From the NCBI GenBank assembly GCA_041671565.1, contig JBAZBH010000004.1:9308-73307 (forward strand): a stretch of DNA of 64,000 nt, in the 5' to 3' direction. This DNA is from Patescibacteria group bacterium. GTDB lineage: Bacteria > Patescibacteriota > Patescibacteriia > JACRDY01. The notes below the pieces were generated by a model. The model ran no database searches. It saw nothing but the letters and a program-made list of their open reading frames with translations, and was not told the origin of the DNA. Below, in pieces: positions 6,537 to 59,694 of this stretch (positions are counted from its first letter, which is position 1; each line of letters begins with the position of its first letter). Both the position numbers and the translations under genes were made by a program.

Positions 6537-6548
6537 AAAATAAATAGC

Positions 6549-15500: not shown

Positions 15501-18500
15501 TTGTTTGCGGCCGTGGCTTATTCTGGTACCGGCAATCAAGCCATGACTTCACCGGATGGCATTACTTGGACCAGCCAAACTCCCGCTCATAATTTTTGGT
15601 CCGCCGTCACCTATGGCAATGGCTTGTTTGTGGCGGTGGCTTATGGCGGCGGCACTGGCAATCGAGTGATGACTGCTTCGCTCTCAGCCGGTGGGGAAAC
15701 CGATTATGGGCCTTGTGATATTGCTACCGGCGGCACTTGTGAACTCAACTCGTCTTTAGCTTGCCAAAATGATGGCCAGTGCACGGTTCATAGCGGCGGC
15801 GGTGTCAACGATCGTTTATACACCAATATTTACATTTTGTCCCAGACCGAGAATTCTAATTCCAACACCAATAATATCTTCCAACAGTTGTTGAGGAATT
15901 TAACCTTTAACACCAATATCCCCAGCTCTAATACTTGTTTTAAACAAATCGGGGCCACCCCCCAAGAAATTTTGGACGCCGATGGCAATCCGGTGGTCTG
16001 TAGCCAAGATGCCGACTGTTATCGCTGTTCTCCGAACATTTCTGTCGCCAATCCTAACCCGGATAAGATTTGCGAGATTAGTGACGATTGCGCGGCGCCC
16101 GGAACCACGGCGTTGGAGTGTGATGCCGATCGTCCCGGTGTCACCATTACTTGCAACAGCCCCAAACTTAAAGTTACCCGCAATGTCAAACGGGCGGCGG
16201 ATATTCATGATACGCGCAGTCTCCTGGCGGCCTATGGCGAACAGCATAAAGTTGATAATATCAAAACTTACCCGAGTTTAGCCGCCGGCAGTTATCTTAA
16301 TGGCCAATCTTACAGCGCTTGGCCGTCCTGGCAGGCGACGCTGGGCAATGCGCTTGGCCGCACGCTGGCAATTGATCCGCTGAATGCTTTTTATGGTTGT
16401 AGCGCGCCTTATAATTCTACCACTTGCTGGGACCAGAAGACCCTGCGGTTTGCTTGTCCGGCGAAGTCTTACACCTATTATTACAGCGTGGCGCCGGATC
16501 TGAAGACTTATCGGCTGCTGGCTAATTTTGAGCAGTTTAGCACTACGCCGATAGCCGATCTTTGGGATGTGTTTAAAGATTATGAAAGCGTATTGCAGGA
16601 GGTTTGTTATAACTTTGAAGGGCGGAATTTTGACGATTACGACCAGGACGGTGTCAAAGACAGCGTGGATAATTGTCCGGGCGACAAGAATGGCTATACC
16701 TTGCCTTGCGACGGTTCTAATGACGGACTGTGCTGTCCGTACGACGATGTTCGCTTTTGTTGCCCTTATTATAATCCTGATATGCCAGATACTGATCCGG
16801 GTTTTGATGCCATGATAGCGGCGGTACGGGATAATTGCGGCCACACCAGGACCGGCCAAGCCGATACTGACGGTGATGGTATTGGCAATACTTGCGAAGA
16901 TTGTCCGAATGACGCCAACCATAATGACGCGGATAACGACGGCTTATGTGGGCAGGAGGATAATTGCTGGATGATTAGTAACCCAGAACAATTGGATAGT
17001 GATAATAGCTGTCCGGAGCCGCCATTTTATACCAGCGGCGCTGATCCCCAAACTTACGATCCGGCCTGCGGCGATGTTTGCGATTCTACCTGTCGCGGCC
17101 TGGGCGATGATGATTGCCAACAGGTTTGTGAGGGTAATAATAATGTTTGGTTAAATCAGGGCGGGCAGTCTAACTGTTGCGGCGACGATCCGGGTGAAGG
17201 CGCGGTGGGGACGATTGAAACCGGTAGCCAGTGCTTTGACGGCATTGACAACAACTGCGACGGCCGGATTGACGAAAGTGTTGACCCGGACAGCGACGGC
17301 GCCGGCTCCTGCGACCGGCCGGTGGCGGATTGTAATAACGATCCCGCCAGCCGTCCCGTTAGCGGTTCCGATATCTATCCTGGGGCAACCGAAGATTGTT
17401 ATAATAATATTGATGATAATTGCAATGGATTACTCGACGCCGCTGATCCGCAGTGCGCTCTTGTTACTTTTTCTCTTTCTGAAGCCATAACCCCGACTAC
17501 CGATTCTTATTATATTAAATTTACTAAAGATGATGATCCTAATTTTGTCGGTATGGTCGGGGCGCCGCAGGGCGTTTCCTATGGCCTACCCAATGAATTA
17601 GTTTGTTTTGGCACTAATACTTCCGGTGTCGTGCCAGCGCCATACCGAGCCTGCTTTGATAAATCCGGGCAAAGACCATTTTCAGATTTTCAAGGGTTTA
17701 TTTTGCCAGTCGGTAACTATACGGCCGAGATTTATCCAATTGAACCTAGTTCGGCGGTTGGCGATTATAGCCTGACGGCCAGCCAAAATGTTGCCGTTAC
17801 TGATATTTCTCATCCTAGCTGTGTTAATAATAACTACCTTAATTATGGCGCGGCTGACGGCGGACATTGCCTGCCGTGGAGCCATACCGAGTTTTGGGCC
17901 GACGCCTCTGATTGCGCCCTGACTGTCGGGGGGAACCATTATACTGATCCTAACTATTTACAAGCTTGGGGCGTGGATGGAAATGTTTTAACCACGCCAA
18001 CGAGAGAGCAACAACATTGTTTCAATCTCGCGCCGACTGATAAATATTACACTTTTCGGTTGGATAGCGACCATAGTGTTTTAAACGCGCCTTTACCCGA
18101 CTTTGAAAATACTTTTGTCGGCGCTGAATATGATTGGCAAGGTGTGGCTTATGGCGAGAACACATTTGTGGCGATTAGCGCTGACAAGGTAATGACTTCA
18201 GCTGACGGCGCCACTTGGATTGCCCGTAACGGTGGCGGCATGCAAGATTGGCATAGTGTGGCCTATGGCGGTGGCAAATTTGTGGCCGTAGCCAATAACG
18301 GCCACGCTGGCCTTAAAAGGGTGACGATTTCCGATGACGGCATTACTTGGCGGTATGGGATGTCTACCGGAGATCGAGAGGATGATTATCAGAGCATTGC
18401 TTATGGCGGTGGCAAATTTGTGGCCGTGGCTAGCGGCACTGGCAATCGAGTTATAACTTCGTCTGATGGCATCGCCTGGACTGCCCACGCTACTCCAAAC

Positions 18501-19082
18501 AACAATGATTGGCAAAGTGTGGCTTATGGCGTTGTCCAGAGCCGCGGCACATTCGTGGCCGTGGCTAATTCCGGCACCGGCCGGATTATGACTTCAACGG
18601 ATGGCGCCAGTTGGACGGCTTTAAATATCGGCGACGCTTATGATTGGCAGAGTGTGGCTTATGGCGAGGGCAAGTTTGTGGCGGCGGGCACTGATAGCGC
18701 GGGCAAATTAGTTGAAGCCTTTTCCGATGGCGCTAGTTGGACAGTCAATGTTTCGGCTAATACCGGCAAAGTGTATGCCTTGGCTTATGGCGGCGGCACA
18801 TTTGTGGCCGTGGTTGATAGCGCCGCGGGTAAGCAAGTAATAACTTCACCTGATGGCGCTAGTTGGACACCTTCGCCCAACCACACGCTGGATAATGATT
18901 GGCGGAGCATTGCTTATGGCGGCGGTAAGTTTGTGGCCGTGGCTAGTTCCGGCGTGGGCAACCGAGTGATGACTTCTTATAATGGCATTGATTGGGAACC
19001 CCAAGCCGCGGCGGTTTCGCCTAACCCAGTTTATTGGGATCCGGATGTTTTAATTAAATTTAGGTTTACCGTTACACATTAA
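6549..19082 (+). CDS. Giant (4177 aa) surface/adhesin-like protein with the same N-terminal pilin-like domain, followed by IPT/TIG domains, Cys-rich repeats, TSP3 Ca-binding repeats and two BNR/Asp-box beta-propellers
   Basis: N-term DIRVLIANIIRYALGLLGIVAVVICLYGGWLYMTSQG...LAFAIVSLVF. IPT/TIG-like ITEVDPGNGAPGNFITIYGKFFG (x3). CGNGxxExGEECD Cys-rich repeats. DQDGVKDSVDNCPGD / DTDGDGIGNTCEDCPND TSP3 repeats. About 7 + 8 repeats of WxSVxYGNGxFVAV...MTSPDGITWT, where SxDGxTW is the BNR/Asp-box. Confidence 0.8.
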   Translation: MFKKFSKIFLVLGLTAVLLLTAFGVRTALAADATDLGLSYVSNNTILPTGDIRVLIANIIRYALGLLGIVAVVICLYGGWLYMTSQGNEEQTTRAKAVLRDGLIGLAIILLAFAIVSLVFNFLVNATNPGESCAPGDPPRGCNWAPGPNCSGTQRCESNNRWGGCIPNYPIPPECELRDQFYIHHFSPPPYPPVTDPSKIGYWHAIKVRNATEEITFSMAVNPETLFETAPDSAASTAEPAFIVSKTFLSLSGVDYSDHLVMTASKTGNGIEILSNGQNVAPLADGINNFKWAVVKVTGGNWSGDNITVIFRTDQITNQGDLESWLGQHNDIDAGNYTVVNIFAVEIAAAGVGHDYFTEFPPAATYAAGSDPAGSIYLNYSAAEAAQSGSARIKVYNLGITYDPASADPARHLDAVGQQLKDMSEADLKALMLPDKQVAGDLVVVNGTIVAFNPSAPCPAGHETFFCFDQNTAYGVLVLPGVESQTGKRLLVDSAWPDFAYFLTGDKIDTEAPAVTLNMPFEGQGVCADQFNLSPAQSNLQSDARDDTEITRVAYSVYDASGPRGQLPIHYFIDGGTGKIMPNTEALWHIDYPSGGPLPDKYISYGSWDTYGFTFVTPPPPRVTVKAEAHDWNLSVEDSNTVVMRADHCCNGKKDLDETGVDCGGAWCGGCDGDACSLDTQSCQPDPTLCASSFCDPTTCVCRHLPIITEVDPGNGAPGNFITIYGKFFGSQIGQVVFLGAAGAGDDKVAKLPNEINPACGNTWQDEQIVVAVPTGAVDGPIKVVTAGGLEDTTESGPLHQRYPEEVVMTFDVNLTLRPGACLLRPASGKFSEQVDIVGTGFGLGTGTSDKVYFGTIVGPAVANSWTQTTVGAQVPNIAGGQTVAVKVQVGAEQSNGLRFNVTDEGDNNFPQINYLDPVDGNIGQYVTIFGKNFGGDTGTVLFTYNAGSEAQTAWGDFNFPAGCGQTWSDSQIIVKVPPSFLSIGEVPGGPLVLNVNYKVSVKRRNDGAESNAVTFSTVDRALSPGICRLNPDNGPEGTPVYALGENFGASDEEKNGFLFFSLTKADNVARAGVPLWGDTAAKVFVPAEANTGPAYLYNQGYFPYTGKSNEVGFRVGACTQNLCNNYPDGLACNSGNRGQHAPDGARCWLCLANGWEWDYTAADCSSQFKDCCDDGVCLDKKSTNPQPCATRGNNSSLAWAFSTGEIPVYPRVVEECTQSLSCNQANLPSPSPWTPDFDIDREYELACSNSVITARFTAPMKPTSFIYLTARSPDVYKDGTGAIQPASATATVEVKKCVTAVVVDNHFISCSNWDNPLPGEPEMPPSPDSFQFYPGSKAVGTALDPDSWYQVTLFGRPAGQTSGGLVGVNDYPLQQNYVWQFKTRSAADEPCKVGCVTVTPPSVTARFLGPLHHYSADGIEGDLWYHQAFISAEDSPCNLINASAYGWLWYATQNEFIRKGARVNHIAYNRVNGAPDKQLVTAQFETAGLPVLLWAEETSSHHKNKGDVYVDLVDPQIIARWPDCGTACVNAQIGAAFNTEMVANDFDSADTVQLFSCGTDATCSGVMASVPISDVFYQDQDQRATLPPGHYFHELTFNASAALLPNIYYRVVIKNTVQSVDGVFLTIPNAADRYDSNPQDGNVDGYSWIFKTKNDFNLCAIGRVAVSPAAAKLIWIPDYQFFGAQAYGFPDDCNQYGQRLVNSSYAWDWAATDKANEPPYENPVARISQVPAVGCGNGLINRGEDCDAGPRNGLVGSGCTTQCLHTGSVAGGTCRNGVVDVGEECDYGELVNNDDDSTNYSLKYCDSVTCLRLGNGNSGTVCGNGLLEPGEACDTLFEPNGDDSDGCTDHCTHSGSLPLAAGGTCGDGRVGLGEECESCLVCQGGTAANNCSAKEPTAAACIMPCSVRTATTPYWECTGATGCSAKGETSCRADNACVWTRRTLACETPTASSEGCYTNCLLLNGDLYKYSGSNYSTSMSVCHNGLVEIGEECDLGLPINIGGADNYRLNQCNSANCLNAGAPILTTYAPAGPFQIATSVNEGFSEITAAAGGFCASDHSKACVANFDCPVNDTCDISLQKKNDPVSELEVVCHLAAEDCPYSTPSDLFPRGLDSNGCCRLRPQVAVMVPANNPDSDWECVGPGTCSSNGRSACLADTSCSWTRKNAVCRNTVITASFNYPDGTVTLEAMDASSFTKDNVVLEYNNGLNVCPGAPVSFLQNKFPWIKVFGQDGLLSWGYHKLGELAKKFLGQDALADARPEDIWCPVKSSVTGSGDKLEVNLLEMLPANKQIRVVVKEGVKDSHGTPLGNFNHRIVDGLDISCNDRDGNANGCNSFVWTFNTGADICLLNRVVVDPLQASLNYHFDAATQLDGSYYDPKATAKSSNGPIQMVPGTYSWTWSWSKGSLPDAVATMTDNRYCSENPSQVCTNNTVACANDKGACTADAAPSVLKHCSGDPTVDCTADATVCKPNCVSHDQQKVMAQQQNGEGVITATAKVNQVDPSLVSETLLGAAYSGESQLVVFFCNNPWPRVCKHYDANSNSWLTSSPLTPCQIGDDLLDDDCAAGDSCSFDAWGLEDSSDTAVPAFLSNPVYTNFKTYYCRDAGAADRTSDDLPSLAFPPTVIPPNIQPLGVGGSSQLLRHMLLPRAIDSSFWGSEIGGSSDAVIISVEKNIEHLSPALWFTEKFGGAPTAEKVDGYEAVNSGNTHYINAGNFVPATGETNYGPCVLPAGNGVCRLQPSLACQNDGQCRVPSDSSWTSRTSIPDRSWQSVAYGNGKFVAVGQTDIVITSPDGINWTSQTAINNTWQSVTYGNGIFVAVNDSNTGDRVMTSPDGITWTSRPADYGQYTQWQSVTFGNGKFVMVNSNGTGNQAMTSPDGINWTSQTTPTPNNSWSAVTYGNGLFVAVADSGAGVMTSPDGITWTSRTAVDSEWRSVTYGNGLFAAVAISSGSHPRVMTSPDGITWTSRTAPAQLWSSVTYGNGLFAAVAYSGTGNQAMTSPDGITWTSQTPAHNFWSAVTYGNGLFVAVAYGGGTGNRVMTASLSAGGETDYGPCDIATGGTCELNSSLACQNDGQCTVHSGGGVNDRLYTNIYILSQTENSNSNTNNIFQQLLRNLTFNTNIPSSNTCFKQIGATPQEILDADGNPVVCSQDADCYRCSPNISVANPNPDKICEISDDCAAPGTTALECDADRPGVTITCNSPKLKVTRNVKRAADIHDTRSLLAAYGEQHKVDNIKTYPSLAAGSYLNGQSYSAWPSWQATLGNALGRTLAIDPLNAFYGCSAPYNSTTCWDQKTLRFACPAKSYTYYYSVAPDLKTYRLLANFEQFSTTPIADLWDVFKDYESVLQEVCYNFEGRNFDDYDQDGVKDSVDNCPGDKNGYTLPCDGSNDGLCCPYDDVRFCCPYYNPDMPDTDPGFDAMIAAVRDNCGHTRTGQADTDGDGIGNTCEDCPNDANHNDADNDGLCGQEDNCWMISNPEQLDSDNSCPEPPFYTSGADPQTYDPACGDVCDSTCRGLGDDDCQQVCEGNNNVWLNQGGQSNCCGDDPGEGAVGTIETGSQCFDGIDNNCDGRIDESVDPDSDGAGSCDRPVADCNNDPASRPVSGSDIYPGATEDCYNNIDDNCNGLLDAADPQCALVTFSLSEAITPTTDSYYIKFTKDDDPNFVGMVGAPQGVSYGLPNELVCFGTNTSGVVPAPYRACFDKSGQRPFSDFQGFILPVGNYTAEIYPIEPSSAVGDYSLTASQNVAVTDISHPSCVNNNYLNYGAADGGHCLPWSHTEFWADASDCALTVGGNHYTDPNYLQAWGVDGNVLTTPTREQQHCFNLAPTDKYYTFRLDSDHSVLNAPLPDFENTFVGAEYDWQGVAYGENTFVAISADKVMTSADGATWIARNGGGMQDWHSVAYGGGKFVAVANNGHAGLKRVTISDDGITWRYGMSTGDREDDYQSIAYGGGKFVAVASGTGNRVITSSDGIAWTAHATPNNNDWQSVAYGVVQSRGTFVAVANSGTGRIMTSTDGASWTALNIGDAYDWQSVAYGEGKFVAAGTDSAGKLVEAFSDGASWTVNVSANTGKVYALAYGGGTFVAVVDSAAGKQVITSPDGASWTPSPNHTLDNDWRSIAYGGGKFVAVASSGVGNRVMTSYNGIDWEPQAAAVSPNPVYWDPDVLIKFRFTVTH
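14850..15700 (+). repeat. Tandem ~135 nt coding repeats (7 BNR/Asp-box blades) inside the giant ORF
   Basis: Repeated ...tggcaatccgtcacctatggcaatggc...atgacttcaccggatggcattacttggacc... Confidence 0.65.
18128..19005 (+). repeat. Second tandem BNR/Asp-box blade array (about 8 blades) at the C-terminus of the giant ORF
   Basis: Repeated DWQSVAYGGGKFVAV...MTSxDGxxWT units. Confidence 0.6.
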
Positions 19083-36291: not shown

Positions 36292-36684
36292 ATGTCCAAA
36301 ATCCTCGGCATCGACTACGGCAGTAAAAGGATCGGCCTGGCGCTCGGCGACGAAGAAAGCCGTCTCGCTCTGCCTTTTGATGTCGTCGATAACCAGCGGG
36401 GGATGATTGGCGAATTGCGGCGGATTATTGAAGGCGAAAAAATTTACCGGCTGGTGGTCGGGTTGCCGCTTAACATGTCCGGCGGCGAGACCCAAAAAAC
36501 CGCTGAAGTCCGGCAGTTTATTGAGCTACTCGAACAAAATTTTAATCTGGCGGTGATTACCGAGGATGAACGGTTGACTTCCAAGGCGGCCGACAGCCTT
36601 TTCCGTTCTTACCGGCAAAAATACGACCGCGACGCCATCGCCGCGATGGTGATCTTGCAGGGGTATTTAGATAAAATCAAGTAG
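36292..36684 (+). CDS. ruvX: Putative pre-16S rRNA nuclease / Holliday junction resolvase-like YqgF
   Basis: ILGIDYGSKRIGLALGD RNase H-like N-terminus. Confidence 0.85.
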   Translation: MSKILGIDYGSKRIGLALGDEESRLALPFDVVDNQRGMIGELRRIIEGEKIYRLVVGLPLNMSGGETQKTAEVRQFIELLEQNFNLAVITEDERLTSKAADSLFRSYRQKYDRDAIAAMVILQGYLDKIK

Positions 36685-36685
36685 G

Positions 36686-36760
36686 CAGGTGGTTAGGTCG
36701 TTAGGTCGTTAGGTTTGCGGCGCCATAACCACCTAACTACCTATCAACCTAACCACTACC
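36686..36760. repeat. TAGGTNGTTAGG-word element
   Basis: gcaggtggttaggtcgttaggtcgttaggtttgcggcgccataaccacctaactacctatcaacctaacc. Confidence 0.6.
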
Positions 36761-37486
36761 ATGGAATACTTCACCCAAGCCATTGTCCTCAGTAAAACCG
36801 GCGTTCGGGAATACGACCGCCTTTTTTGTCTTTATACCAAGCATTTGGGTAAAACCACGGTCCTCGCTCGCGGCGCTCGGCGGCCGGGCAGCAAGATGGC
36901 CGGGCACCTAGAACCGTTTGGTTTATTAGCTGTTAAAATCGCCATCGGCCGCGGCCAGCCGCTCCTCGCCAATGTGGAAACCTTAAAGCGCTATCAAAAC
37001 ATTCTTAAAAATCTGGAGCTGATTAAATTGGCGCGCCGTTCAACGGCTTTAGTCGACCGGCTGGTTAAAGAGGGGAGTTGCGATTTGGGGATTTTACAGC
37101 TTCTGAACCAAATTCTGGAGCTTCTAAATTCGCCGGCCGCTAGCCTGCCGACCAAAGTTTTTCTAGTCCAAGTTTTTCAGCTTCAACTTCTAGGCCACCT
37201 CGGTTACCGGCCGGAGCTCGGGCAGTGTTTAGTCTGCCGGCAGAAGCTTCAGCCCGCAGGCAACTTCTTTGATCCGTTAAAAGGCGGCGTTGTCTGCCCG
37301 GCTTGCCAAGCGAAAGTTGTTGATTTACATCAGGCCAGAGTCATTAGCGCGCCGGAAATCAAACTTTTGCGGTTGGCTCTCGGCGAGAAGCTGTCATTTT
37401 TTGCCGGCAAGCGGGTGGCGGCGGAGTTAGCCACCAGTGTTGGCGCGATCATTGATTCTTTTGTCCGAGTGGTGAGTGAGAAGTAA
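36761..37486 (+). CDS. recO: DNA repair protein RecO
   Basis: OB-fold N-terminus (AIVLSKTGVREYDRLFCLYTKHLGK) and CLVC...CPAC zinc motif. Confidence 0.8.
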   Translation: MEYFTQAIVLSKTGVREYDRLFCLYTKHLGKTTVLARGARRPGSKMAGHLEPFGLLAVKIAIGRGQPLLANVETLKRYQNILKNLELIKLARRSTALVDRLVKEGSCDLGILQLLNQILELLNSPAASLPTKVFLVQVFQLQLLGHLGYRPELGQCLVCRQKLQPAGNFFDPLKGGVVCPACQAKVVDLHQARVISAPEIKLLRLALGEKLSFFAGKRVAAELATSVGAIIDSFVRVVSEK

Positions 37487-37522
37487 ACTTGACTTTTTAT
37501 GCCATTATGCTATACTAACATT

Positions 37523-37579
37523 ATGAAAACTTACCAAGCCGTGAATAATAATAACAATAATAACCAGCTACGGGGCTGA
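37523..37579 (+). CDS. Putative 18-codon Asn-rich leader peptide MKTYQAVNNNNNNNQLRG
   Basis: tatact -10 box at 37511-37516. ATG at 37523; 7 of 18 codons are Asn; TGA stop. A terminator/antiterminator follows. Confidence 0.35.
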   Translation: MKTYQAVNNNNNNNQLRG

Positions 37580-37604
37580 GAGGTTTTCTATTAATAAAAA
37601 CCTA

Positions 37605-37637
37605 AGGCCCCGTGAAAGCGGGGCTTCTTTGAATTTT
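37605..37637 (+). terminator. Intrinsic terminator / attenuator hairpin
   Basis: ggccccg-tgaaag-cggggc + ttctttgaatttt. The upstream cggggc (37571-37576, inside the last leader codons) can pair alternatively with gccccg. Confidence 0.5.
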
Positions 37638-37750
37638 ACGGACTTCTCAAGTTCGCCGCAGGCGAACGCCGAGAAGGCCAGAGTAAAATTCATCCGCCGA
37701 ATCCAGCTGCAGAACCCTGCGGCTGGAGAAGGCGGATAGTTGTTTGCTAG

Positions 37751-37806
37751 GCTCTGGGGTAGTTTAATGGTAAAACGCCTGGCTGCCTGCCCGCAATGCT
37801 CTGCGC
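37751..37806 (+). pseudogene. Degenerate 5'-half copy of tRNA-Asn
   Basis: gctctggggtagtttaatggtaaaacgcctggctg closely mirrors the genuine 5' half gctctgggatagttcagtggtagaacgcctggctg. Confidence 0.5.
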
Positions 37807-37878
37807 TCTGGGATAGTTCAGTGGTAGAACGCCTGGCTGTTAACCAGGATGTCGCAGGTTCGAATCCTGCTCCCAGAG
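37807..37878 (+). tRNA. tRNA-Asn (GTT)
   Basis: Cloverleaf: acceptor tctggga/tcccaga (U1-A72 as in E. coli tRNA-Asn); D stem gttc/gaac; anticodon loop ctGTTaa; T arm gcagg-ttcgaat-cctgc; CCA not encoded. Confidence 0.85.
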
Positions 37879-37880
37879 CA

Positions 37881-37920
37881 TAGCGCAGGCAGGCGGGCGT
37901 TCGATTCCTCCCCCCAGAGC
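37881..37920 (+). pseudogene. Degenerate 3'-half copy of tRNA-Asn
   Basis: gcgggcgttcgattcctccccccagagc mirrors the genuine gcaggttcgaatcctgctcccagagc; acceptor complementarity to the upstream 5' pseudo-half (gctctgggg/ccccagagc). Confidence 0.5.
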
Positions 37921-37967
37921 TTAATAGATAATACTTGGCCGCTTAATCTTTACTCTAAATTAAGATA

Positions 37968-40184
37968 ATGGTAATATATAGGTATATGCCATGGAAACTT
38001 CCGATCCCATCAAAAATAAAAAGGATTGAGACAAAGGATAAAAAAGAAGCGGCTAGTTTTAAAAAAGCCGGTTTTTCTCAAAAAAGAATGAAAAGCGGCA
38101 AGTTTGTTTTAGAAAGAAAACTCCCAAAATGGGAATACTTTCAAGAAAAAGTTCGTGTATTTTTAGATGTTCTTGGATTTCAGGATATTGAATGTGGACA
38201 ATCGGCTCGATTGGGGAGATATCAGATTGATGTTTTTGGTGGGTACGAAGGGACCTTTTTGGTTTTTGAATGCAAAAGTGTTAACGAACCAAAGCGAAAA
38301 ACGATTAGACAGATTATAAATGATTTTGCCGGAAAAAAAGCAGAAATAGAGCAAGCAATAAGAGAAAGATTTGGTTCTAAATACAATGAAGTTAAATTTA
38401 TTTTAGCTCTCGAAGAAATAGACATTTTAGAAGAAGATGAAAAAACTGCTCGTGAAAATGATATTTATATATGGGGTAGTAGTTATTTAAAAACTGGTGA
38501 AGATCTCTTTTCACTTATTGGTCCGTTGGCTTTACATTATGTTTTAAAAGAATTAGGTGTTAGTTCAAAACCCATTAAAGATGAGGAAGGAGGGGCTGAT
38601 TATAAAGTTCCAAGTTTTCGTATAACGGTGGGAGATCAACAATTATATAGTTTTTTTCTTCCTGCCGAAAAATTGTTAAATTTAGTGTATGTTTTTCGTC
38701 TTCAGCCGGGGAATGAAGATGCCTATCAAAGATTTATTTCAAAAAAACGTATTCTCGGAACAAAAGATGAAATTGGTATAACTGATTTTATAAACAACGG
38801 CGGATTTTTTAAAAACACCGTTGTTTGTAGTTTTGAAAGGCAAGTCCATTTTGAGGCAAAACCAACTGGTCTTTTATTGCAATCAACAAATATAGAATTT
38901 GGTATTTTGAGCATTCCAAAATTATATGGAACAGTTTGGGTTATTGATGGACAACATAGAATCTATGGTTATGCCGGTGCAAATCCTGAAACTAAAAAAT
39001 CACATATTGGGATAATGGCTTATCAAGATATTGAAAAAAAACGTCAAGCAAAAGATTTTATTGATATTAATCAAAAACAAAAATCAGTAGATCCTAATAC
39101 TCTTTGGGATTTACTTTCCCAAACAGATCCATATTCAATGCAGGGTGCGATAACAAAAATTGCTCGCGGATTGAATAAAAATGGAATTTTTAAAAATAAA
39201 ATTTTAATTCCAGGGAAAATGTTTCATGGTAAAAAATCATTATATCCATTAAAAATAGCCAATATTTGTAATAGTTTGTATGATCGCAGATTACTTGACT
39301 ATAAAGGCCGCGACAATTTATATAAAAGAACTTCAGATGTAGCGGATAGTAATTATTACCCGGATAGTGTTATAAACTACCCAGTAGATGTCCTTAATCA
39401 GTATTTTTCTTTACTTTGGGATATTGCAGACAAAACTCCAGAATGGAGAAAGGGGTTTATCATTCAAAATAATGGATTTAATATTTTTTTGCGCGTTCTC
39501 GCAGAAGTTTTGAAATTTCAAAAAGGCAATTGGGATAAACAGGTAGCAAAAGAATTAATGGATGAACCATTGAAATTATATTTTGAAGAGCAGTTTGAAA
39601 AAATAAAAGATATAAGGATCTCAACAAGTAATGAGGCGGGTAGAGCAAAGGTTGCTTTAGAAATTATAAAGCATATTAACCAGAAACAAGAGTCTTTTGC
39701 CCGTGAATTTATTGCGGAAACAGAAAAAAGAGAACGGTCGGCTTTTGAAAAATTAGAGCCTTATCAAACATTAAAAGAATTAGAAACAAGTTTAAGGGTT
39801 TTTATTGAGGAAAAATTAAAGCAATTAACACCAAATTGGTGGAAACAAAGAATCCCATCGGATGTTCAGGAAAAAGCTGAAGAAAACATGGCTAAAAACG
39901 AAAGTCCTTGGCCATGGGTACCAATAGAGGAAAAATCGCCGATCTTTTATATTAATTTTCCTGATTATGGGAAAATAATTCAAAGAAAAGATAACTGGAA
40001 TGATATTTTTTCAAAAATATTTAAAGATTCTAATATAATCTTTTCTTGGTTGAGGGAGTTGGAGGATATCCGCAATAAAATTGCCCATTTTCGTCCTATT
40101 TCCGTTGAAGAGTCTACCACCCTTAGACTTAATACAAGTAAAATTATAAAAACTATCAAACCAACAGAAGAGAAAGAGGAGTAG
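37968..40184 (+). CDS. Three-domain fusion: PD-(D/E)xK (Mrr_cat-like) nuclease + DGQHR (DndB-like ParB-fold) domain + C-terminal HEPN (Rx4H). Candidate defense protein on an AT-rich islet.
   Basis: N-term FLDVLGFQDIECGQSARLGRYQIDVFGGYEGTFLVFECKS (D..ExK); middle GTVWVIDGQHRIYGY; C-term WLRELEDIRNKIAHFRP (R-N-K-I-A-H). About 36% GC versus about 50% flanking. An alternative start at 37986 is possible. Confidence 0.75.
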   Translation: MVIYRYMPWKLPIPSKIKRIETKDKKEAASFKKAGFSQKRMKSGKFVLERKLPKWEYFQEKVRVFLDVLGFQDIECGQSARLGRYQIDVFGGYEGTFLVFECKSVNEPKRKTIRQIINDFAGKKAEIEQAIRERFGSKYNEVKFILALEEIDILEEDEKTARENDIYIWGSSYLKTGEDLFSLIGPLALHYVLKELGVSSKPIKDEEGGADYKVPSFRITVGDQQLYSFFLPAEKLLNLVYVFRLQPGNEDAYQRFISKKRILGTKDEIGITDFINNGGFFKNTVVCSFERQVHFEAKPTGLLLQSTNIEFGILSIPKLYGTVWVIDGQHRIYGYAGANPETKKSHIGIMAYQDIEKKRQAKDFIDINQKQKSVDPNTLWDLLSQTDPYSMQGAITKIARGLNKNGIFKNKILIPGKMFHGKKSLYPLKIANICNSLYDRRLLDYKGRDNLYKRTSDVADSNYYPDSVINYPVDVLNQYFSLLWDIADKTPEWRKGFIIQNNGFNIFLRVLAEVLKFQKGNWDKQVAKELMDEPLKLYFEEQFEKIKDIRISTSNEAGRAKVALEIIKHINQKQESFAREFIAETEKRERSAFEKLEPYQTLKELETSLRVFIEEKLKQLTPNWWKQRIPSDVQEKAEENMAKNESPWPWVPIEEKSPIFYINFPDYGKIIQRKDNWNDIFSKIFKDSNIIFSWLRELEDIRNKIAHFRPISVEESTTLRLNTSKIIKTIKPTEEKEE

Positions 40185-40305
40185 GGGAGTTTTGTGGATG
40201 AATATCTATAAGTTGATATTCTCTGGGCGAGTATTGTCCCGAGAATTTTTTGTTTATCCTTTACCCCACCCTTGGGGATAACTGGCTATTTACCCCTTAA
40301 CGGCG

Positions 40306-40525: not shown

Positions 40526-41641
40526 ATGACCGAAGGCAACGGGACAAACGGGCAAAACAACAATGGCGTTGGCGCGGCGGCGGATAAAAGGGCCGCGGCT
40601 TTGGTTTTGCCGCAAAAAGTGGCGATCATTTACAGCGAGGTCAAGCGGGAGTATTTTCCTACAGAAACCCAGTATTTGACCGAGAAAGACGCGCTTCGCG
40701 ACGCCCAGGCGGTGGCCGGCTATTTGGAAAAACTGGGCGTGACGCCAATGCTTTATCCCGGCGACGCTGACTTGGCGGAGAAAATCCGTCACGACCGGCC
40801 GGAAATGCTGATCAATATGGTCGGTTCGGTCAAAGGCAATGAGTATCTGGCTTCCGCCATTCCGGCGCTCGCCGAGCTCCTAGACATTCCTTATACTGGC
40901 GCCGGCATTTTGGGCGAGTCGCTCGCTTACAATAAATTTCTGGTTAAAAAACTTTTACAGCAAAACGGCGTGCCGGTACCCAACTACCAGCTGTTTAGTG
41001 ACCAAAATGATTTTCTCGACCCGACACTGCGGTTTCCGGTCATTTCCAAACTCAATGAAATTCATGGCGCCGTGGAAATTACCAAAGACGCCGTGTCCGA
41101 GAACGAAAAGCATTTGCGGGCGCGGCTCAGTTTCCTGATCAAAACCTACGAACAGCCGGTTTTGGTGGAGGAGTTTATCGCCGGCCGGGAAATTTCCGCC
41201 ATGCTTTTGGAAGGTTTGAACAAAAAGGTTTATCTTGCCGAAAAGGTTTTTAACAAGCCGGATGAAAAATACGCCTTTGCCACTTTTGAAGACCAGTGGT
41301 TGGAAGAGGCCTCAGGCAAAGCGCCATTCACTTACCAAAAGTTTCAGGACAATATTCTCAAAGAATATGTGAAAAAAGCCTTTGAAATCACCAAAATGGC
41401 TGACTATGGCAAGTTTGATGTCCGGCTGGATAACTCCGGCCGCTACTACTTTGTGGACTGCAACAGCAACCCGGCGTTTGGCCCGAAAGAAGTGGACTGC
41501 GCCATTGCCAATATCCTTGATCTTTACGGTGTCTCTTTTTTAGAAATTTTGCGGCGGCTCCTCCTTAACACCGCCCGCGACGCCAAGTCCAAGATTTCGC
41601 CCAGCCCGGATTCTGGCGATGACAGCAATAATGAAAAGTAA
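40526..41641 (+). CDS. ATP-grasp ligase, D-alanine--D-alanine ligase family (paralog 1)
   Basis: Ddl-like N-domain (KVAIIYSEV...LGVTPMLYP), central LAELLDIPYTGAG, ATP-grasp core KLLQQNGVPVP...PVISKLNEIHGA...VLVEEFIAGREIS, C-terminal VDCNSNPAFG. Confidence 0.7.
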   Translation: MTEGNGTNGQNNNGVGAAADKRAAALVLPQKVAIIYSEVKREYFPTETQYLTEKDALRDAQAVAGYLEKLGVTPMLYPGDADLAEKIRHDRPEMLINMVGSVKGNEYLASAIPALAELLDIPYTGAGILGESLAYNKFLVKKLLQQNGVPVPNYQLFSDQNDFLDPTLRFPVISKLNEIHGAVEITKDAVSENEKHLRARLSFLIKTYEQPVLVEEFIAGREISAMLLEGLNKKVYLAEKVFNKPDEKYAFATFEDQWLEEASGKAPFTYQKFQDNILKEYVKKAFEITKMADYGKFDVRLDNSGRYYFVDCNSNPAFGPKEVDCAIANILDLYGVSFLEILRRLLLNTARDAKSKISPSPDSGDDSNNEK

Positions 41642-41644
41642 TTT

Positions 41645-42676
41645 ATGAAGAAGCTTAACCTAGGCTTCATCTATAATGTCCGCCACACGGCGCCGGATTT
41701 AAACAATCCGCAGTATTTGCTGGAAGCGGAATTTGACACGCCGGAGACGATTGCCGGCATCACCGGGGCGTTGGAAAGTTTGGGCCACACGGTTTATCCG
41801 GTGGAGGCGGACGAAGACGCTTACCCTAAACTCAAAGAATTAAAAGGCAAAGTTGATTTGGTTTTTAATGTTGCTGAAGGCATTCGCGGCGCCGACCGTG
41901 AAGCGCAGTTGCCGGCGATGATGGAAATGCTCGGCTTGCCTTACACTGGGCCGCCGCCGATCGGCTACGCTTTAGGTTTAAACAAAGCCGTGGCCAAAGA
42001 AATCCTGGCTTATTACCACATTTTAACCCCGCGCTGGCGGACAGTTTCGCGTTTAGAAGAATTGGAACAAAAGCAGTTTGATTTTATGCCGGTGATTGCG
42101 AAGCCGCTGTCCGAAGGCTCGAGCAAGGGGATACAAGCTAAGAATTTAGTTCATAATTTAGCCGACTTAAAAACCATCACGGCGGAACTTTTGGCGGCCT
42201 ATCATCAGCCGGTGCTTTTGGAGGAATATCTGCCGGGCCGCGAGTTTACCGTTGGCGTGATTGGCACGCCACCAGAGGTCCTGCCGATCATCGAGGTGTC
42301 GTTTGACGCTTTACCCCCGGAGATGCCCAAATTTGACCATTTTGAGGCTAAATGGGTATATGACAATCCGGCCACGGAGGCTGATCCGCTGGTTTGCCCG
42401 GCCGTTCTTTCGCCGGAGCTGGAAGGGCAGATCAAGAACCTTTGCCTGCAGGCGTTTGATGTCCTGGAAATGGCGGACTGGGCGCGGTTTGATGTGCGGC
42501 TCGACAAGAATAATTTACCCCACATCTTGGAAGTTAACTGCCCGCCGGGGATTATCCCGGACCCGAAAGAAAATTCCCGCTTTCCGCGGGCGGCGCGGAC
42601 CGCTGGTTACAGTTTCCCGCAAATGTTAGAAAAAATATTGCTGTCGGCTTGCCACAAAACTCTCGCCCCACCTTAG
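41645..42676 (+). CDS. ATP-grasp ligase, D-alanine--D-alanine ligase family (paralog 2)
   Basis: FNVAEGIRGADREAQLPAMMEMLGLPYTGP (Ddl N-domain), PVIAKPLSEGSSKGI, VLLEEYLPGREFTVGVIG, LEVNCPPGI. Confidence 0.7.
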   Translation: MKKLNLGFIYNVRHTAPDLNNPQYLLEAEFDTPETIAGITGALESLGHTVYPVEADEDAYPKLKELKGKVDLVFNVAEGIRGADREAQLPAMMEMLGLPYTGPPPIGYALGLNKAVAKEILAYYHILTPRWRTVSRLEELEQKQFDFMPVIAKPLSEGSSKGIQAKNLVHNLADLKTITAELLAAYHQPVLLEEYLPGREFTVGVIGTPPEVLPIIEVSFDALPPEMPKFDHFEAKWVYDNPATEADPLVCPAVLSPELEGQIKNLCLQAFDVLEMADWARFDVRLDKNNLPHILEVNCPPGIIPDPKENSRFPRAARTAGYSFPQMLEKILLSACHKTLAPP

Positions 42677-59399: not shown

Positions 59400-59476
59400 T
59401 GGTAGCTGGGGAGGGAGTTGAACCCTCGACCTCGGGCTTATGAGTCCCACGCTCTAACCAACTGAGCTACCCAGCC
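59400..59476 (-). tRNA. tRNA-Met (CAT), elongator-type, CCA encoded
   Basis: Reverse complement: ggctgggtagctcagttggttagagcgtgggactCATaagcccgaggtcgagggttcaactccctccccagctacca. Confidence 0.8.
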
Positions 59477-59514: not shown

Positions 59515-59580
59515 CGAGCCCCACGCTCTAACCAGCCCCGGGCCGACGACCCGCTAGGGCCGGGCCTGAGCTACCCAGCC
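59515..59580 (-). pseudogene. Pseudo-tRNA: 5' half of tRNA-Met interrupted by a GC-rich palindromic insertion
   Basis: Reverse complement ggctgggtagctcag[gcccggccctagcgggtcgtcggcccggggc]tggttagagcgtggggctc; no T arm. Confidence 0.5.
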
Positions 59581-59694
59581 AAGACTCAAAAACTTCTACC
59601 ATTTTAGATGAATATAGGGCAAAAGTCAACTTTATCCTTTGACAGTTTAGTAAATTTAGATTAGACTGATAACTGAATTAAGCTATTTTAACCG

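Follow-up and report, generated by a model that had tools for sequence, protein, structure and literature searches.

A putative Asn-codon leader-peptide attenuator upstream of tRNA-Asn in Patescibacteria

Known attenuators and the leader upstream of tRNA-Asn

The closest described systems are the classical leaders of amino-acid biosynthetic operons in Enterobacteria, namely trpL, hisL, pheL, leuL, thrL, and ilvL. In E. coli pheM-pheST an attenuator precedes aminoacyl-tRNA synthetase genes, and in Firmicutes Asn-specific T-boxes are located upstream of asnS and asnA. Bacterial tRNA genes are usually seen as globally controlled (growth rate, stringent response) and not as controlled singly; gene regulation in the Candidate Phyla Radiation is, to our knowledge, almost unexplored. 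Leader-peptide attenuators are also present in Actinobacteria and Firmicutes (PMC1262725, PMC2965389), a His-codon leader is found upstream of hisS/hisZ paralogues in Bacilli (PMC2965389), and leaderless short polycysteine ORFs of mycobacteria serve as stalling sensors (Canestrari et al., bioRxiv 10.1101/834739).

In this work we analyzed a leader upstream of a tRNA-Asn gene in a 64,000-nt stretch of Patescibacteria DNA (the window) and in its relatives. We consider it probable that this leader acts as a transcription attenuator of the ribosome-mediated (leader-peptide) kind, through which tRNA-Asn comes under feedback by its own product. The basis for this assignment is sequence analysis of the parts, their conservation, the mutually exclusive structures, the geometry of ribosome positions, and the link to tRNA-Asn. 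Like the classical leaders, the element has a short 5' ORF in which codons of a single amino acid are repeated in a row (hisL likewise has 7 consecutive regulatory codons), the 5' arm of its terminator can alternatively pair upstream, and the ribosome position, stalled or at the stop codon, would select the structure. The classical leaders control biosynthetic enzymes, whereas here the cognate tRNA gene follows. Further differences are the amino acid (Asn, for which Rfam holds no leader), an ORF that begins 6-11 nt past the -10 box without a Shine-Dalgarno (SD) sequence on an mRNA predicted to be (near-)leaderless, an equivalent of the trp 1:2 protector hairpin that is weak and found in 8/13 lineages only, and the host phylum, Patescibacteria. 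The synthetase attenuators share with it the control of a translation-apparatus component for one amino acid by a leader ORF rich in the codons of that amino acid; their target is protein-coding, whereas here the sensing codons are decoded by the target tRNA itself, and this would close a direct feedback loop on the sensed molecule.

The same architecture was found upstream of tRNA-Asn in 13 distinct Patescibacteria lineages, the window and 12 others (L043, L170, L171, L174, L175, L177, L044, L047, L001, L003, L002, and L097), all from uncultivated organisms known only as metagenome-assembled genomes. Several of the related genomes, among them L001, L004, and L007, come from groundwater of the SO_2016/2017 sample series. 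The lineages were reached through the neighboring recO gene (RecO 45-64% identical) or through the tRNA itself, so that the search was blind to the leader. The conserved order is promoter, ATG, 4-9 Asn codons, stop codon at segment 1 (the 5' strand of the antiterminator), antiterminator, terminator, and tRNA-Asn. The earlier note had named loss of the Asn run and of the alternative pairing in relatives as grounds against attenuation; both are kept in all 12 further lineages.

Leader promoter, ORF and Asn run

The features of the leader in the window are as follows.

37489-37494, + strand: -35 box of the leader promoter, TTGACT (promoter scan; TTGAC[TA] in 12/13 lineages)
37508-37516, + strand: extended -10 box TGcTATACT, with TATACT at 37511-37516, 6 nt 5' of the ATG
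37523-37579, + strand: leader ORF for MKTYQAVNNNNNNNQLRG, 18 codons and the stop TGA; its start, the first ATG 3' of the -10 box, shares the frame of the Asn run
37544-37564, + strand: 7 successive Asn codons (AAT AAT AAT AAC AAT AAT AAC), the proposed sensing codons
37565-37578, + strand: small hairpin CAGCU/GGCUG (segment 0 with segment 1), -6.2 kcal/mol, directly 3' of the Asn run
37569-37577, + strand: segment 1 (UACGGGGCU), 5' strand of the antiterminator, spanning the three sense codons before the stop and the first base of the stop
37581-37603, + strand: inner hairpin AGGUUUU-N9-AAAACCU within the antiterminator, present in all lineages with sequences that differ and co-vary
37606-37614, + strand: segment 3 (GGCCCCGUG), common to the antiterminator (with segment 1) and the terminator (with segment 4)
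37606-37634, + strand: intrinsic terminator with an 8-bp stem GGCCCCGU/GCGGGGCU and a GAAA loop, then the interrupted T-tract TCTTTGAAT

The TATACT box followed by an 18-codon ORF with seven Asn codons in a row, from which the earlier note started, is present at 37511-37516 and 37523-37579. The promoter is near-consensus (TTGACT-16-TGcTATACT; 10/12 matches, 16-nt spacer). Among the 12 lineages with a recognizable promoter, the distance from the -10 box to the ATG is 6-11 nt in 11 and 16 nt in L097, and in 11/12 the Asn run shares its frame with the first ATG past the -10 box. In L001/L169, where no promoter is recognizable beside the leader, an ORF of 141 codons separates the leader from the ancestral promoter. 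Because the -10 box of the window is only 6 nt 5' of the ATG, transcription is predicted to start at or adjoining the AUG, and promoter geometry alone gives a predicted 5' UTR of 0-5 nt in 11/13 lineages. There is no SD sequence before the start codon of the leader, which is normal here because SD sequences are rare in the window (2/35 long ORFs). The mycobacterial polycysteine ORFs resemble this arrangement in being very short, in lying at the 5' end of the transcript (predicted in our case), and in carrying consecutive codons of one amino acid. In that system the stalled ribosome exposes the next gene's ribosome-binding site and the targets are cysteine metabolism genes, whereas what follows here is a tRNA gene, which is not translated, and the controlled element would be a terminator.

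A run of at least 5 successive AAY triplets occurs a single time in the 64 kb, in the leader, and none is expected (100 shuffles). The ORF has 15-20 codons in 13/13 lineages, its stop codon is in or just before segment 1 in all of them, and the encoded peptide is unconserved outside the Asn run. Across the lineages the runs comprise 69 AAT, 20 AAC, and 7 other codons; variation of the run is thus mainly synonymous T/C change at the third position. The conserved frame and this synonymous variation are indirect evidence that the leader ORF is translated.

The codon pattern also bears on the proposal that the leader is an untranslated RNA switch in which a protein or, in the manner of a T-box, tRNA-Asn itself binds the AAU/AAC run and thereby selects the antiterminator or the terminator. 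Riboswitches, T-boxes, and protein-dependent attenuators likewise work through a terminator paired with an antiterminator, and a start codon without an SD sequence would fit an RNA that is not translated, but the lack of SD is the norm in this genome, the run varies codon-wise (AAT/AAC third position, whole-codon interruptions), and it is in frame with a conserved ATG and with a stop placed at segment 1. There is also no conserved structured aptamer 5' of segment 1, the first ~45 nt of the leader being predicted open. In a cmscan search of 36500-38500 against Rfam (E up to 10), only the tRNA and chance-level matches were found, with no amino-acid leader family; the T-box model gave no match at the same threshold, and the structured stem I is absent. 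The T-box-like reading was rejected for lack of a T-box match and for a pattern that is one of codons. T-boxes do share the principle that the state of one tRNA species is turned into a choice between terminator and antiterminator. A T-box binds uncharged tRNA via its specifier loop and conserved T-box sequence with no ribosome, whereas the sensing run here would be part of an ORF read by the ribosome. We regard an untranslated switch as very unlikely.

Alternative RNA structures and ribosome position

In the nascent-RNA fold of the window, 37569-37577 pairs with 37606-37614 (-23 kcal/mol), and this antiterminator encloses the small inner hairpin. The stem-loop of the terminator (37606-37625) has a stem fold of -15.1 kcal/mol. 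Both conformations that the earlier note had suggested for folding are predicted, and they are mutually exclusive. The note had paired cggggc (37570-37575) with a downstream gccccg; the complementarity was confirmed, and the downstream site was corrected from 37606-37611 to 37607-37612. Its terminator hairpin was recovered by a scan of the + strand from 36500 to 38500 as the only terminator-like site (about 37605-37626), and the T-run that it described is imperfect (TCTTTGAATTTT), giving a broken U-tract in the RNA (UCUUUGAAUUUU). A GC-rich terminator hairpin with a T-run is present in 13/13 lineages (-7.7 to -16.5 kcal/mol), 11 of which have at least 4 T in a row directly 3' of the stem. The folding z-score of the leader region is -3.6. 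The hairpin of segments 0 and 1 was found in 8/13 lineages (-4.6 to -7.9 kcal/mol) and may be a pause or anti-antiterminator hairpin.

The nascent-RNA fold pairs segment 1 with segment 3 in 13/13 lineages, the antiterminator and the terminator being mutually exclusive; in L002 the two overlap by only 2 bp. We folded each of the 13 sequences in silico under masks for the ribosome footprint. With the footprint at the stop codon, the antiterminator drops to 0 to -2 kcal/mol in 13/13 lineages. When the A site is instead placed at Asn codon 1 or 3, the antiterminator keeps -14 to -24.5 kcal/mol, again in 13/13. The geometry of ribosome-mediated attenuation, recognized by the earlier note in the window, thus corresponds to a predicted switch in every lineage.

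Since any ribosome short of the stop codon would favor the antiterminator, the same folding would also suit a general sensor of translation capacity, with read-through rising whenever ribosomes slow down, or an element for processing or stability of the tRNA precursor, in which the Asn run is incidental (e.g., an AAT microsatellite). The locus is rich in hairpins and tRNA relics, suggesting a complex processing or insertion history. This explanation is scarcely probable at all: with the flanks diverged, the run of 4-9 Asn codons is the sole peptide feature kept in 13/13 lineages, a neutral AAT microsatellite would not hold the frame or confine changes to the third position, and in every case it is the cognate tRNA that is linked to the element.

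Co-variation of the three helices, whose sequences differ between lineages, was examined by alignment-free permutation tests comparing cognate with cross-lineage pairing. Cognate pairing is stronger than cross-lineage pairing for segments 1 and 3 (permutation p = 1e-4), and cognate stability exceeds cross-lineage stability for segments 3 and 4 (p = 5e-5) and for the inner hairpin (p = 1.5e-4). The complementarity of segment 1 also exceeds that of shuffles (Fisher p = 6e-10); the relatedness of the lineages makes this value an upper bound on significance. These tests and the ribosome-mask folding replaced column-wise tests because of the poor alignment register. A covariance model was derived from a MAFFT alignment of the 13 leaders and served to re-align them, and the result was poorly registered: the pair counts gave 65% paired, 30/500 shuffles reached the score, and divergent sequences were at least one column out of register. 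Column pair counts are uninformative here because loop indels put the divergent sequences out of register. RNAalifold predicted no pairs on the antiterminator segments, owing to the same misregistration.

The linked tRNA-Asn gene, the proposed circuit and its meaning

In every lineage the leader is followed by tRNA-Asn, which is the only conserved gene 3' of it; the genes beyond vary between lineages. The downstream gene is not a biosynthetic operon or an aminoacyl-tRNA synthetase gene, unlike the targets of known leader-peptide attenuators. A choice of targets that make or charge the amino acid is a habit of those attenuators and not part of the mechanism. A metagenome scan with a pattern for the tRNA-Asn anticodon arm gave 120 tRNA-Asn loci, mostly from unrelated bacteria, of which only L097 has the element. 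The ~119 other loci served as negative control and contained no Asn-run ORF and no match to the covariance model. The other tRNA genes of the window (two tRNA-Met and one tRNA-Leu) have plain promoters, and no cognate-codon leader was found before them. The features between the terminator and the end of the tRNA locus are as follows.

37631-37737, + strand: two GC-rich hairpins between terminator and tRNA (37631-37691 and 37692-37737), from folding
37753-37785, + strand: 5' half (to G34 of the anticodon) of a degenerate outer tRNA-Asn
37807-37879, + strand: intact tRNA-Asn(GTT) (ARAGORN; Rfam tRNA model, 76.4 bits)
37886-37918, + strand: outer tRNA-Asn, 3' remnant comprising T arm and acceptor strand

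The tRNA-Asn that the earlier note had seen downstream is there, beginning 181 nt past the terminator stem. In 10/13 lineages the tRNA begins 16-29 nt past the terminator, too close for a promoter of its own to fit between, and the spacer in the window is 127 nt. The scan of the window found no promoter-like site from 37552 to tRNA-Asn. A promoter of the tRNA past the terminator, which the note had listed among the grounds against its proposal, is therefore lacking in the window by scan and has no room in these 10 lineages. The candidate TTGTTT-17-TTTAAT was rejected as a tRNA promoter: it lies inside the tRNA relic, does not have the essential A at position 2 of the -10 box, and was not reported by the scan.

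Proximity and promoter placement also bear on a separate small gene, a ~105-nt sRNA or an Asn-rich micropeptide with a function of its own, that adjoins tRNA-Asn by chance, with a constitutive tRNA supply that comes from leaky read-through or a different promoter. The unit does have its own promoter and terminator, it is 181 nt away from the tRNA in the window, and action in trans is known for attenuator-derived RNAs and peptides such as rnTrpL/peTrpL of Sinorhizobium (PMC7298713). However, the tRNA is invariably 3' of the element, and at 16-29 nt past the terminator in 10/13 lineages it would be without a promoter of its own. A co-varying pairing of segments 1 and 3 that competes with the terminator would be pointless in a plain sRNA gene, and the peptide is unconserved outside the Asn run, its C-terminus being set by an RNA stem. 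The chance that the unit is such a gene appears very small to us, and we prefer an attenuator of tRNA-Asn.

The two inserted GC-rich hairpins are missing from most relatives (the second one, 37692-37737, is also in L174); they are therefore probably palindromic insertions, and they are probably transcribed within the tRNA precursor. With the interrupted U-tract and 127 nt of inserted hairpins, control may be weaker in the window genome. The tRNA-Asn of the window is nested inside an older, degenerate second tRNA-Asn gene. A direct-repeat copy at 37751-37785 shares 89% identity with the corresponding stretch of the inner tRNA, the outer 5' half matches a plain tRNA-Asn at the same position in L097, and the outer 5' half and the 3' remnant form a long stem surrounding the inner tRNA. 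Removal of the insert in silico restored a tRNA in L001 and L047 and not in the window. A functional intron-containing outer tRNA was thus rejected for the window, where in-silico splicing yields no tRNA, and is possible in L001 and L047. The nested relic, the two inserted hairpins, the inner hairpin, and the -35 box with the extended -10 had been missed by the earlier note.

Transcription start, translation of the ORF, stalling, and regulatory output are predictions from the sequence, and the proposed circuit would work as follows. A strong sigma-70-type promoter would produce an RNA starting at the AUG or a few bases from it, and a ribosome would translate the 15-20 codon ORF containing the Asn run. 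When Asn-tRNA(Asn) is plentiful, the ribosome would reach the stop codon and cover segment 1 and the 5' side of the inner hairpin. With segment 1 covered, segments 3 and 4 would form the terminator behind RNA polymerase, and transcription would stop after ~105-110 nt. When charged tRNA-Asn is scarce, the ribosome would stall at early or middle Asn codons and leave segment 1 free to pair with segment 3 once it is made; the antiterminator, stacked on the inner hairpin, would then block the terminator. The polymerase would continue into tRNA-Asn, and the usual tRNA-processing enzymes would excise the product from the precursor. For an untranslated leader the default is probably read-through rather than super-attenuation, because the protector hairpin is weak and occurs in 8/13 lineages only.

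No precedent for attenuation of a tRNA gene by its own codons was found in the literature searched or in Rfam, in agreement with the earlier note, which knew of none; a literature search for Asn codons, leader peptide, and attenuation found no paper. E. coli tRNA-Phe genes were considered as a precedent and rejected: pheV is preceded by a plain promoter without any leader ORF, and the literature search was empty. We judge that the attenuation mechanism is known and that feedback on a tRNA gene through its own codons would be new.

It seems rather likely, with somewhat more reserve than we attach to attenuation as such, that a bacterial tRNA gene, possibly for the only tRNA-Asn of the genome, gauges the decoding capacity of its own product through leaderless cognate Asn codons. 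If so, this would be a textbook mechanism newly wired, with direct homeostatic feedback on one tRNA species hard-wired in the leader of its gene. Extra tRNA alone is no cure for an amino-acid shortage, so the physiological signal may be the tRNA level or the Asn supply. If Asn is made only on tRNA in these reduced genomes (non-discriminating AspRS and GatCAB), the tRNA would also be the scaffold of Asn biosynthesis and the element the functional equivalent of an amino-acid biosynthetic attenuator. The element of ~150 nt is self-contained and could become a compact synthetic sensor for the supply of a specific tRNA. With it, leader-peptide attenuators would have their first described member in Patescibacteria and their first for asparagine, and the mechanism would reach into the Candidate Phyla Radiation and into SD-less organisms.

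The Asn leader in the window and in related loci

Upstream of the tRNA-Asn gene, sequence analysis established a leader with a promoter, a micro-ORF carrying a run of Asn codons, and an antiterminator/terminator region, together with its geometry and its conservation. The features in the window are as follows.

37489-37494, + strand: -35 box TTGACT (promoter scan)
37511-37516, + strand: TG-extended -10 box TATACT, ending only 6 nt upstream of the ATG
37523-37579, + strand: leader ORF, 18 codons then TGA, product MKTYQAVNNNNNNNQLRG
37544-37564, + strand: Asn run of seven consecutive codons (ORF translation)
37569-37577 with 37606-37614, + strand: antiterminator pairing (folding)
37581-37603, + strand: inner hairpin (folding)
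37606-37625, + strand: GC-rich terminator hairpin GGCCCCGU-GAAA-GCGGGGCU, then a T-rich tail (terminator scan)
37807-37879, + strand: tRNA-Asn(GTT) (ARAGORN and the Rfam tRNA model)

The TATACT box and the 18-codon ORF with seven Asn codons in a row (ATG at 37523, TGA at 37577-37579), both described in an earlier note from the sequence alone, were confirmed. The gccccg segment named there as pairing partner of the ORF end is also present, at 37607-37612 and not 37606-37611, and the terminator hairpin was found as claimed, with a T-tract that is broken as TCTTTGAATTTT rather than uninterrupted. The sigma-70 promoter has 10/12 matches and a 16-nt spacer. The hairpin was the sole terminator-like site on the + strand in a scan of 36500-38500, and the leader region folded more stably than its shuffles (z = -3.6). 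A run of at least five AAY triplets occurs once in the 64 kb, with zero expected by chance; Asn accounts for 4.8% of codons, an unremarkable share.

The genes upstream of the leader in the window are adk, map, ruvX, and recO; the encoded RecO has an identical counterpart in a Patescibacteria MAG. Relatives were found via RecO and not via the leader, so that the sampling was blind to the tested feature: the 13 closest RecO proteins were aligned, one genome per species was then scanned with this alignment, and single RecO homologues were also traced back to their own contigs. Where RecO identity is 45% or more, a tRNA-Asn gene lies downstream of recO in every relative except L176 (L numbers are handles of related loci from other genomes or metagenomes), and in each of those with the downstream tRNA-Asn, an Asn-run micro-ORF and then a terminator lie between the two genes. 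A separate metagenome scan with the anticodon arm of tRNA-Asn alone as pattern added L097, which has a different flank. After duplicates were dropped, 13 distinct leaders remained, and these keep the Asn run and the alternative pairing on whose conservation the earlier note had made its proposal depend. The MAG contigs of L002 and L003 are titled 'uncultured Gammaproteobacteria bacterium' in their records; these labels look wrong, because the adk-map-ruvX-recO-leader-tRNA-Asn order and the RecO identity (45-52%) agree with Patescibacteria MAGs.

Leader peptides of the 13 lineages
Window: MKTYQAVNNNNNNNQLRG
L043: MKLICLNNSNNNNNRLRG
L170: MKIYIELNNNNNNNQLRG
L171: MKKYLQKLNNNNNNNNQLTG
L174: MKAGLRESNNNNSTRLRR
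L175: MMKFFLNNNNNNNNQPWG
L177: MKKVLLNNNNNNRNR
L044: MFLGNNQNNNNNNNLPRGW
L047: MKFIVVQFNNNNQHWG
L001: MSYIMNNNNNNNQYWG
L003: MKVSCAANNNNTNTNPY
L002: MMSQSVNNNNNNRPPRI
L097: MINFNLNNNNNNNQT

Codon content, promoter, and start of the micro-ORF

Among the 13 lineages the peptides show no conservation beyond the Asn run, and their C-termini are dictated by the RNA stem (GGGGCUGA yields ..RG* or ..WG*). Codons inside the runs of all lineages are 69 AAT, 20 AAC, and 7 other; variation is therefore mostly synonymous at the third position (T/C), and interruptions are whole codons, a pattern which suggests that the run is read as codons. The AAT share of Asn codons in the leaders (78%) is close to genomic usage (68-69%). 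UGA is the stop codon in 10/13 leaders vs 2/30 long ORFs of the window, an excess that may be a mere by-product of the GGGGCUGA stem or may prolong ribosome residence at the stop codon.

A TTGAC[TA]-16/17-TAnnnT promoter was found in 12 of the 13 lineages. In 11 of these 12 the Asn run shares its reading frame with the first ATG past the -10 box, and the distance from the end of the -10 box to the ATG is 6-11 nt in promoter-bearing lineages (16 nt in L097). No Shine-Dalgarno sequence was found upstream of the leader ATG. The window genome hardly uses such sequences (an SD-like tetramer at -20 to -4 in 2 of 35 window ORFs of at least 200 aa), and from the promoter geometry the leader mRNA is predicted to be leaderless or nearly so. 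The exception is L001 4709-5195 (= L169 3270-3695), where a 141-codon ORF without known domain separates a consensus promoter (TTGACT-17-TATAAT) from the Asn leader; this leader has no promoter of its own, and its translation would have to proceed from a polycistronic RNA.

Two mutually exclusive RNA structures

Each of the 13 leaders was folded individually, with and without ribosome masks. In 13/13 lineages the nascent RNA preceding the terminator 3' arm (seg4) folds into a single composite hairpin (-14 to -26 kcal/mol). At the base of this hairpin the 5' antiterminator strand (seg1) is paired with the terminator 5' arm (seg3), which is common to both structures, and the smaller inner hairpin is enclosed. 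Seg1 either overlaps the stop codon together with the sense codons just before it or lies at most 8 nt after the stop. When a terminating ribosome was imposed (RNA covered to 13 nt beyond the first base of the stop codon), the antiterminator dropped to 0 to -2 kcal/mol in 13/13 and seg3 was released for the terminator. With Asn codon 1 or 3 of the run in the A site, the antiterminator was kept (-14 to -24.5 kcal/mol, 13/13); with the ribosome on the last Asn codon it was already eroded in most lineages. The alternative pairing of the ORF end with the terminator arm, as proposed in the earlier note, gives two mutually exclusive conformations in the folding of all 13 lineages. In 8/13 the codons after the Asn run also pair with the 3' part of seg1 (-4.6 to -7.9 kcal/mol; CAGCU/GGCUG in the window), and this small hairpin (seg0:seg1; window 37565-37578) might serve for pausing or as a weak anti-antiterminator.

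Sequence-based alignments of the 13 leaders put the helices out of register, and alignment-free tests were therefore chosen. Complementarity to the cognate terminator 5' arm was higher for the 23 nt around each stop codon than for shuffles of them (individual p 0.004-0.29; Fisher combined p = 6e-10, which overstates the significance because the lineages are related). In a permutation test, segments of one lineage were paired with those of another; cognate pairing gave the higher stability in all three helices, namely seg1:seg3 (p = 1e-4), seg3:seg4 (p = 5e-5), and the inner-hairpin halves (p = 1.5e-4). With one representative per sequence solution the values were 1e-3, 1e-4, and 4e-4, respectively. 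In each differing solution seg4 is altered to match seg3.

Sequence solutions of seg1 / seg3
Most lineages: GGGGCU / AGCCCC
L174: CUGCGG / CCGCAG
L177: GACGUGG / CCGCGUC
L003: GGGUGAU / AUCACCC
L097: GUCGGG / CCCGGC

The putatively controlled gene and the proposed attenuation

The tRNA-Asn is the sole gene always downstream of the leader; genes beyond it vary between lineages. From terminator stem to first tRNA(-like) base there are 16-29 nt including the T-tract in 10/13 lineages, a gap too short for any promoter. The spacer in the window is 127 nt because two GC-rich hairpins are inserted, and a promoter scan of it found no promoter-like site. Transcription of tRNA-Asn would therefore have to pass the terminator. 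Plain promoters precede the other tRNA genes of the window. Among 120 tRNA-Asn loci with the same anticodon arm in the metagenome scan, only L097 has the leader element, the other 119 having neither an Asn-run ORF nor a covariance-model match, and it is absent from more distant RecO loci. We concluded that the leader is real, conserved, and specific.

Around the window tRNA-Asn lie the two parts of a second tRNA-Asn gene, whose break comes just after anticodon base G34.

37631-37691 and 37692-37737, + strand: two GC-rich palindromic hairpins in the terminator-tRNA spacer (fold)
37753-37785, + strand: outer tRNA-Asn, 5' half (repeat comparison)
37886-37918, + strand: outer tRNA-Asn, 3' remnant (repeat comparison)

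Such nested loci are found at window 37753-37918, L001 5344-5530, L047 3886-4062, L043 3161-3253, and L170 1000-1375. The outer gene matches the plain tRNA-Asn at the same position in L097, and is therefore ancestral, the inner tRNA being the insertion. The sequences on either side of the inner tRNA pair together, and short inverted repeats border the insert. In silico removal of the insert restored a complete tRNA-Asn in L001 and L047 and none in the window, where the outer copy has lost ~19 nt and is dead. L170 has several layers of tRNA relics, and 3' relics lie downstream in L002, L003, L175, and L177. Evidently the leader kept its position as successive insertions replaced the tRNA gene downstream of it. 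The nested loci suggest that a tRNA-carrying element was inserted each time, or possibly that the insert is a tRNA-bearing 'intron'. Besides these insertions, the second spacer hairpin (ATCCGCC...GGCGGATAG) is shared with L174, the closest relative (1575-1615), and similar palindromes (GCCTGCCTGCC/GGCAGGCAGGC, CAGCTGCAG..CTGCAGCTG) recur in L002 and L047, suggesting a family of small mobile palindromes. At window 59515-59582 (- strand), adjoining tRNA-Met 59400-59476, a partial tRNA-Met copy, with a GC-rich hairpin (gccccgggccgacgacccgctagggccgggc) interrupting it, is a broken relic like those at the Asn locus.

Directly after the tRNA-Asn locus is a low-GC island (37925-40200; 31-33% vs about 50%), whose ORF 37968-40184 (738 aa, DndB-like (DGQHR) and Swt1-like HEPN domains) probably represents a defence-type gene gained by horizontal transfer at a tRNA hotspot. 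In L047, a diversity-generating-retroelement-like pair (bAvd accessory protein and reverse transcriptase; 6095-6738) lies ~2 kb downstream of the tRNA-Asn locus. Elsewhere in the window are two tandem genes with D-Ala-D-Ala-ligase-type ATP-grasp domains (40526-42676) and a single ORF of about 4,177 codons (6549-19082, + strand); giant proteins are typical of Patescibacteria.

In silico the Asn leader has the mechanistic features of leader-peptide attenuators, and its way of working resembles that of the classical ones (trp, his, phe, leu, thr, ilv) and of those before pheST or hisS (PMC2965389). It differs from the classical attenuators in its target (a tRNA gene), amino acid, phylum, and start (no Shine-Dalgarno, ATG adjoining the promoter). 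Mycobacterial polycysteine ORFs (10.1101/834739) share a leaderless sensing ORF, but act on translation. Rfam gave no family match for the element, leader families and T-box included. The earlier note held attenuation of a tRNA gene by its cognate codons to be undescribed; our full-text literature search, with most subscription journals outside it, likewise returned no leader-peptide attenuation of a tRNA gene, no Asn leader, and no attenuators in Patescibacteria, and a precedent is likely, though not certainly, lacking. E. coli pheV was ruled out as one, having a plain promoter on direct inspection.

With fairly high confidence, the best explanation of the leader is a leader-peptide attenuator by which Asn codons control the tRNA-Asn gene; we infer its transcription start and its translation, as well as ribosome stalling and the regulatory output. 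With plentiful Asn-tRNA(Asn), the ribosome would reach the stop codon and cover seg1, the terminator would form, and a short RNA of ~105-110 nt would be released. With scarce Asn-tRNA(Asn), the ribosome would stall at an early or middle codon of the Asn run, seg1 would capture seg3, and the polymerase would continue into the tRNA gene. Asn-codon decoding capacity would in this way be under negative feedback. In folding, the antiterminator was thermodynamically favoured without a ribosome; read-through is therefore probably the default state, subject to the role of the seg0:seg1 hairpin, and this would be a safe arrangement, given that the tRNA is essential and that translation of its sensor depends on it.
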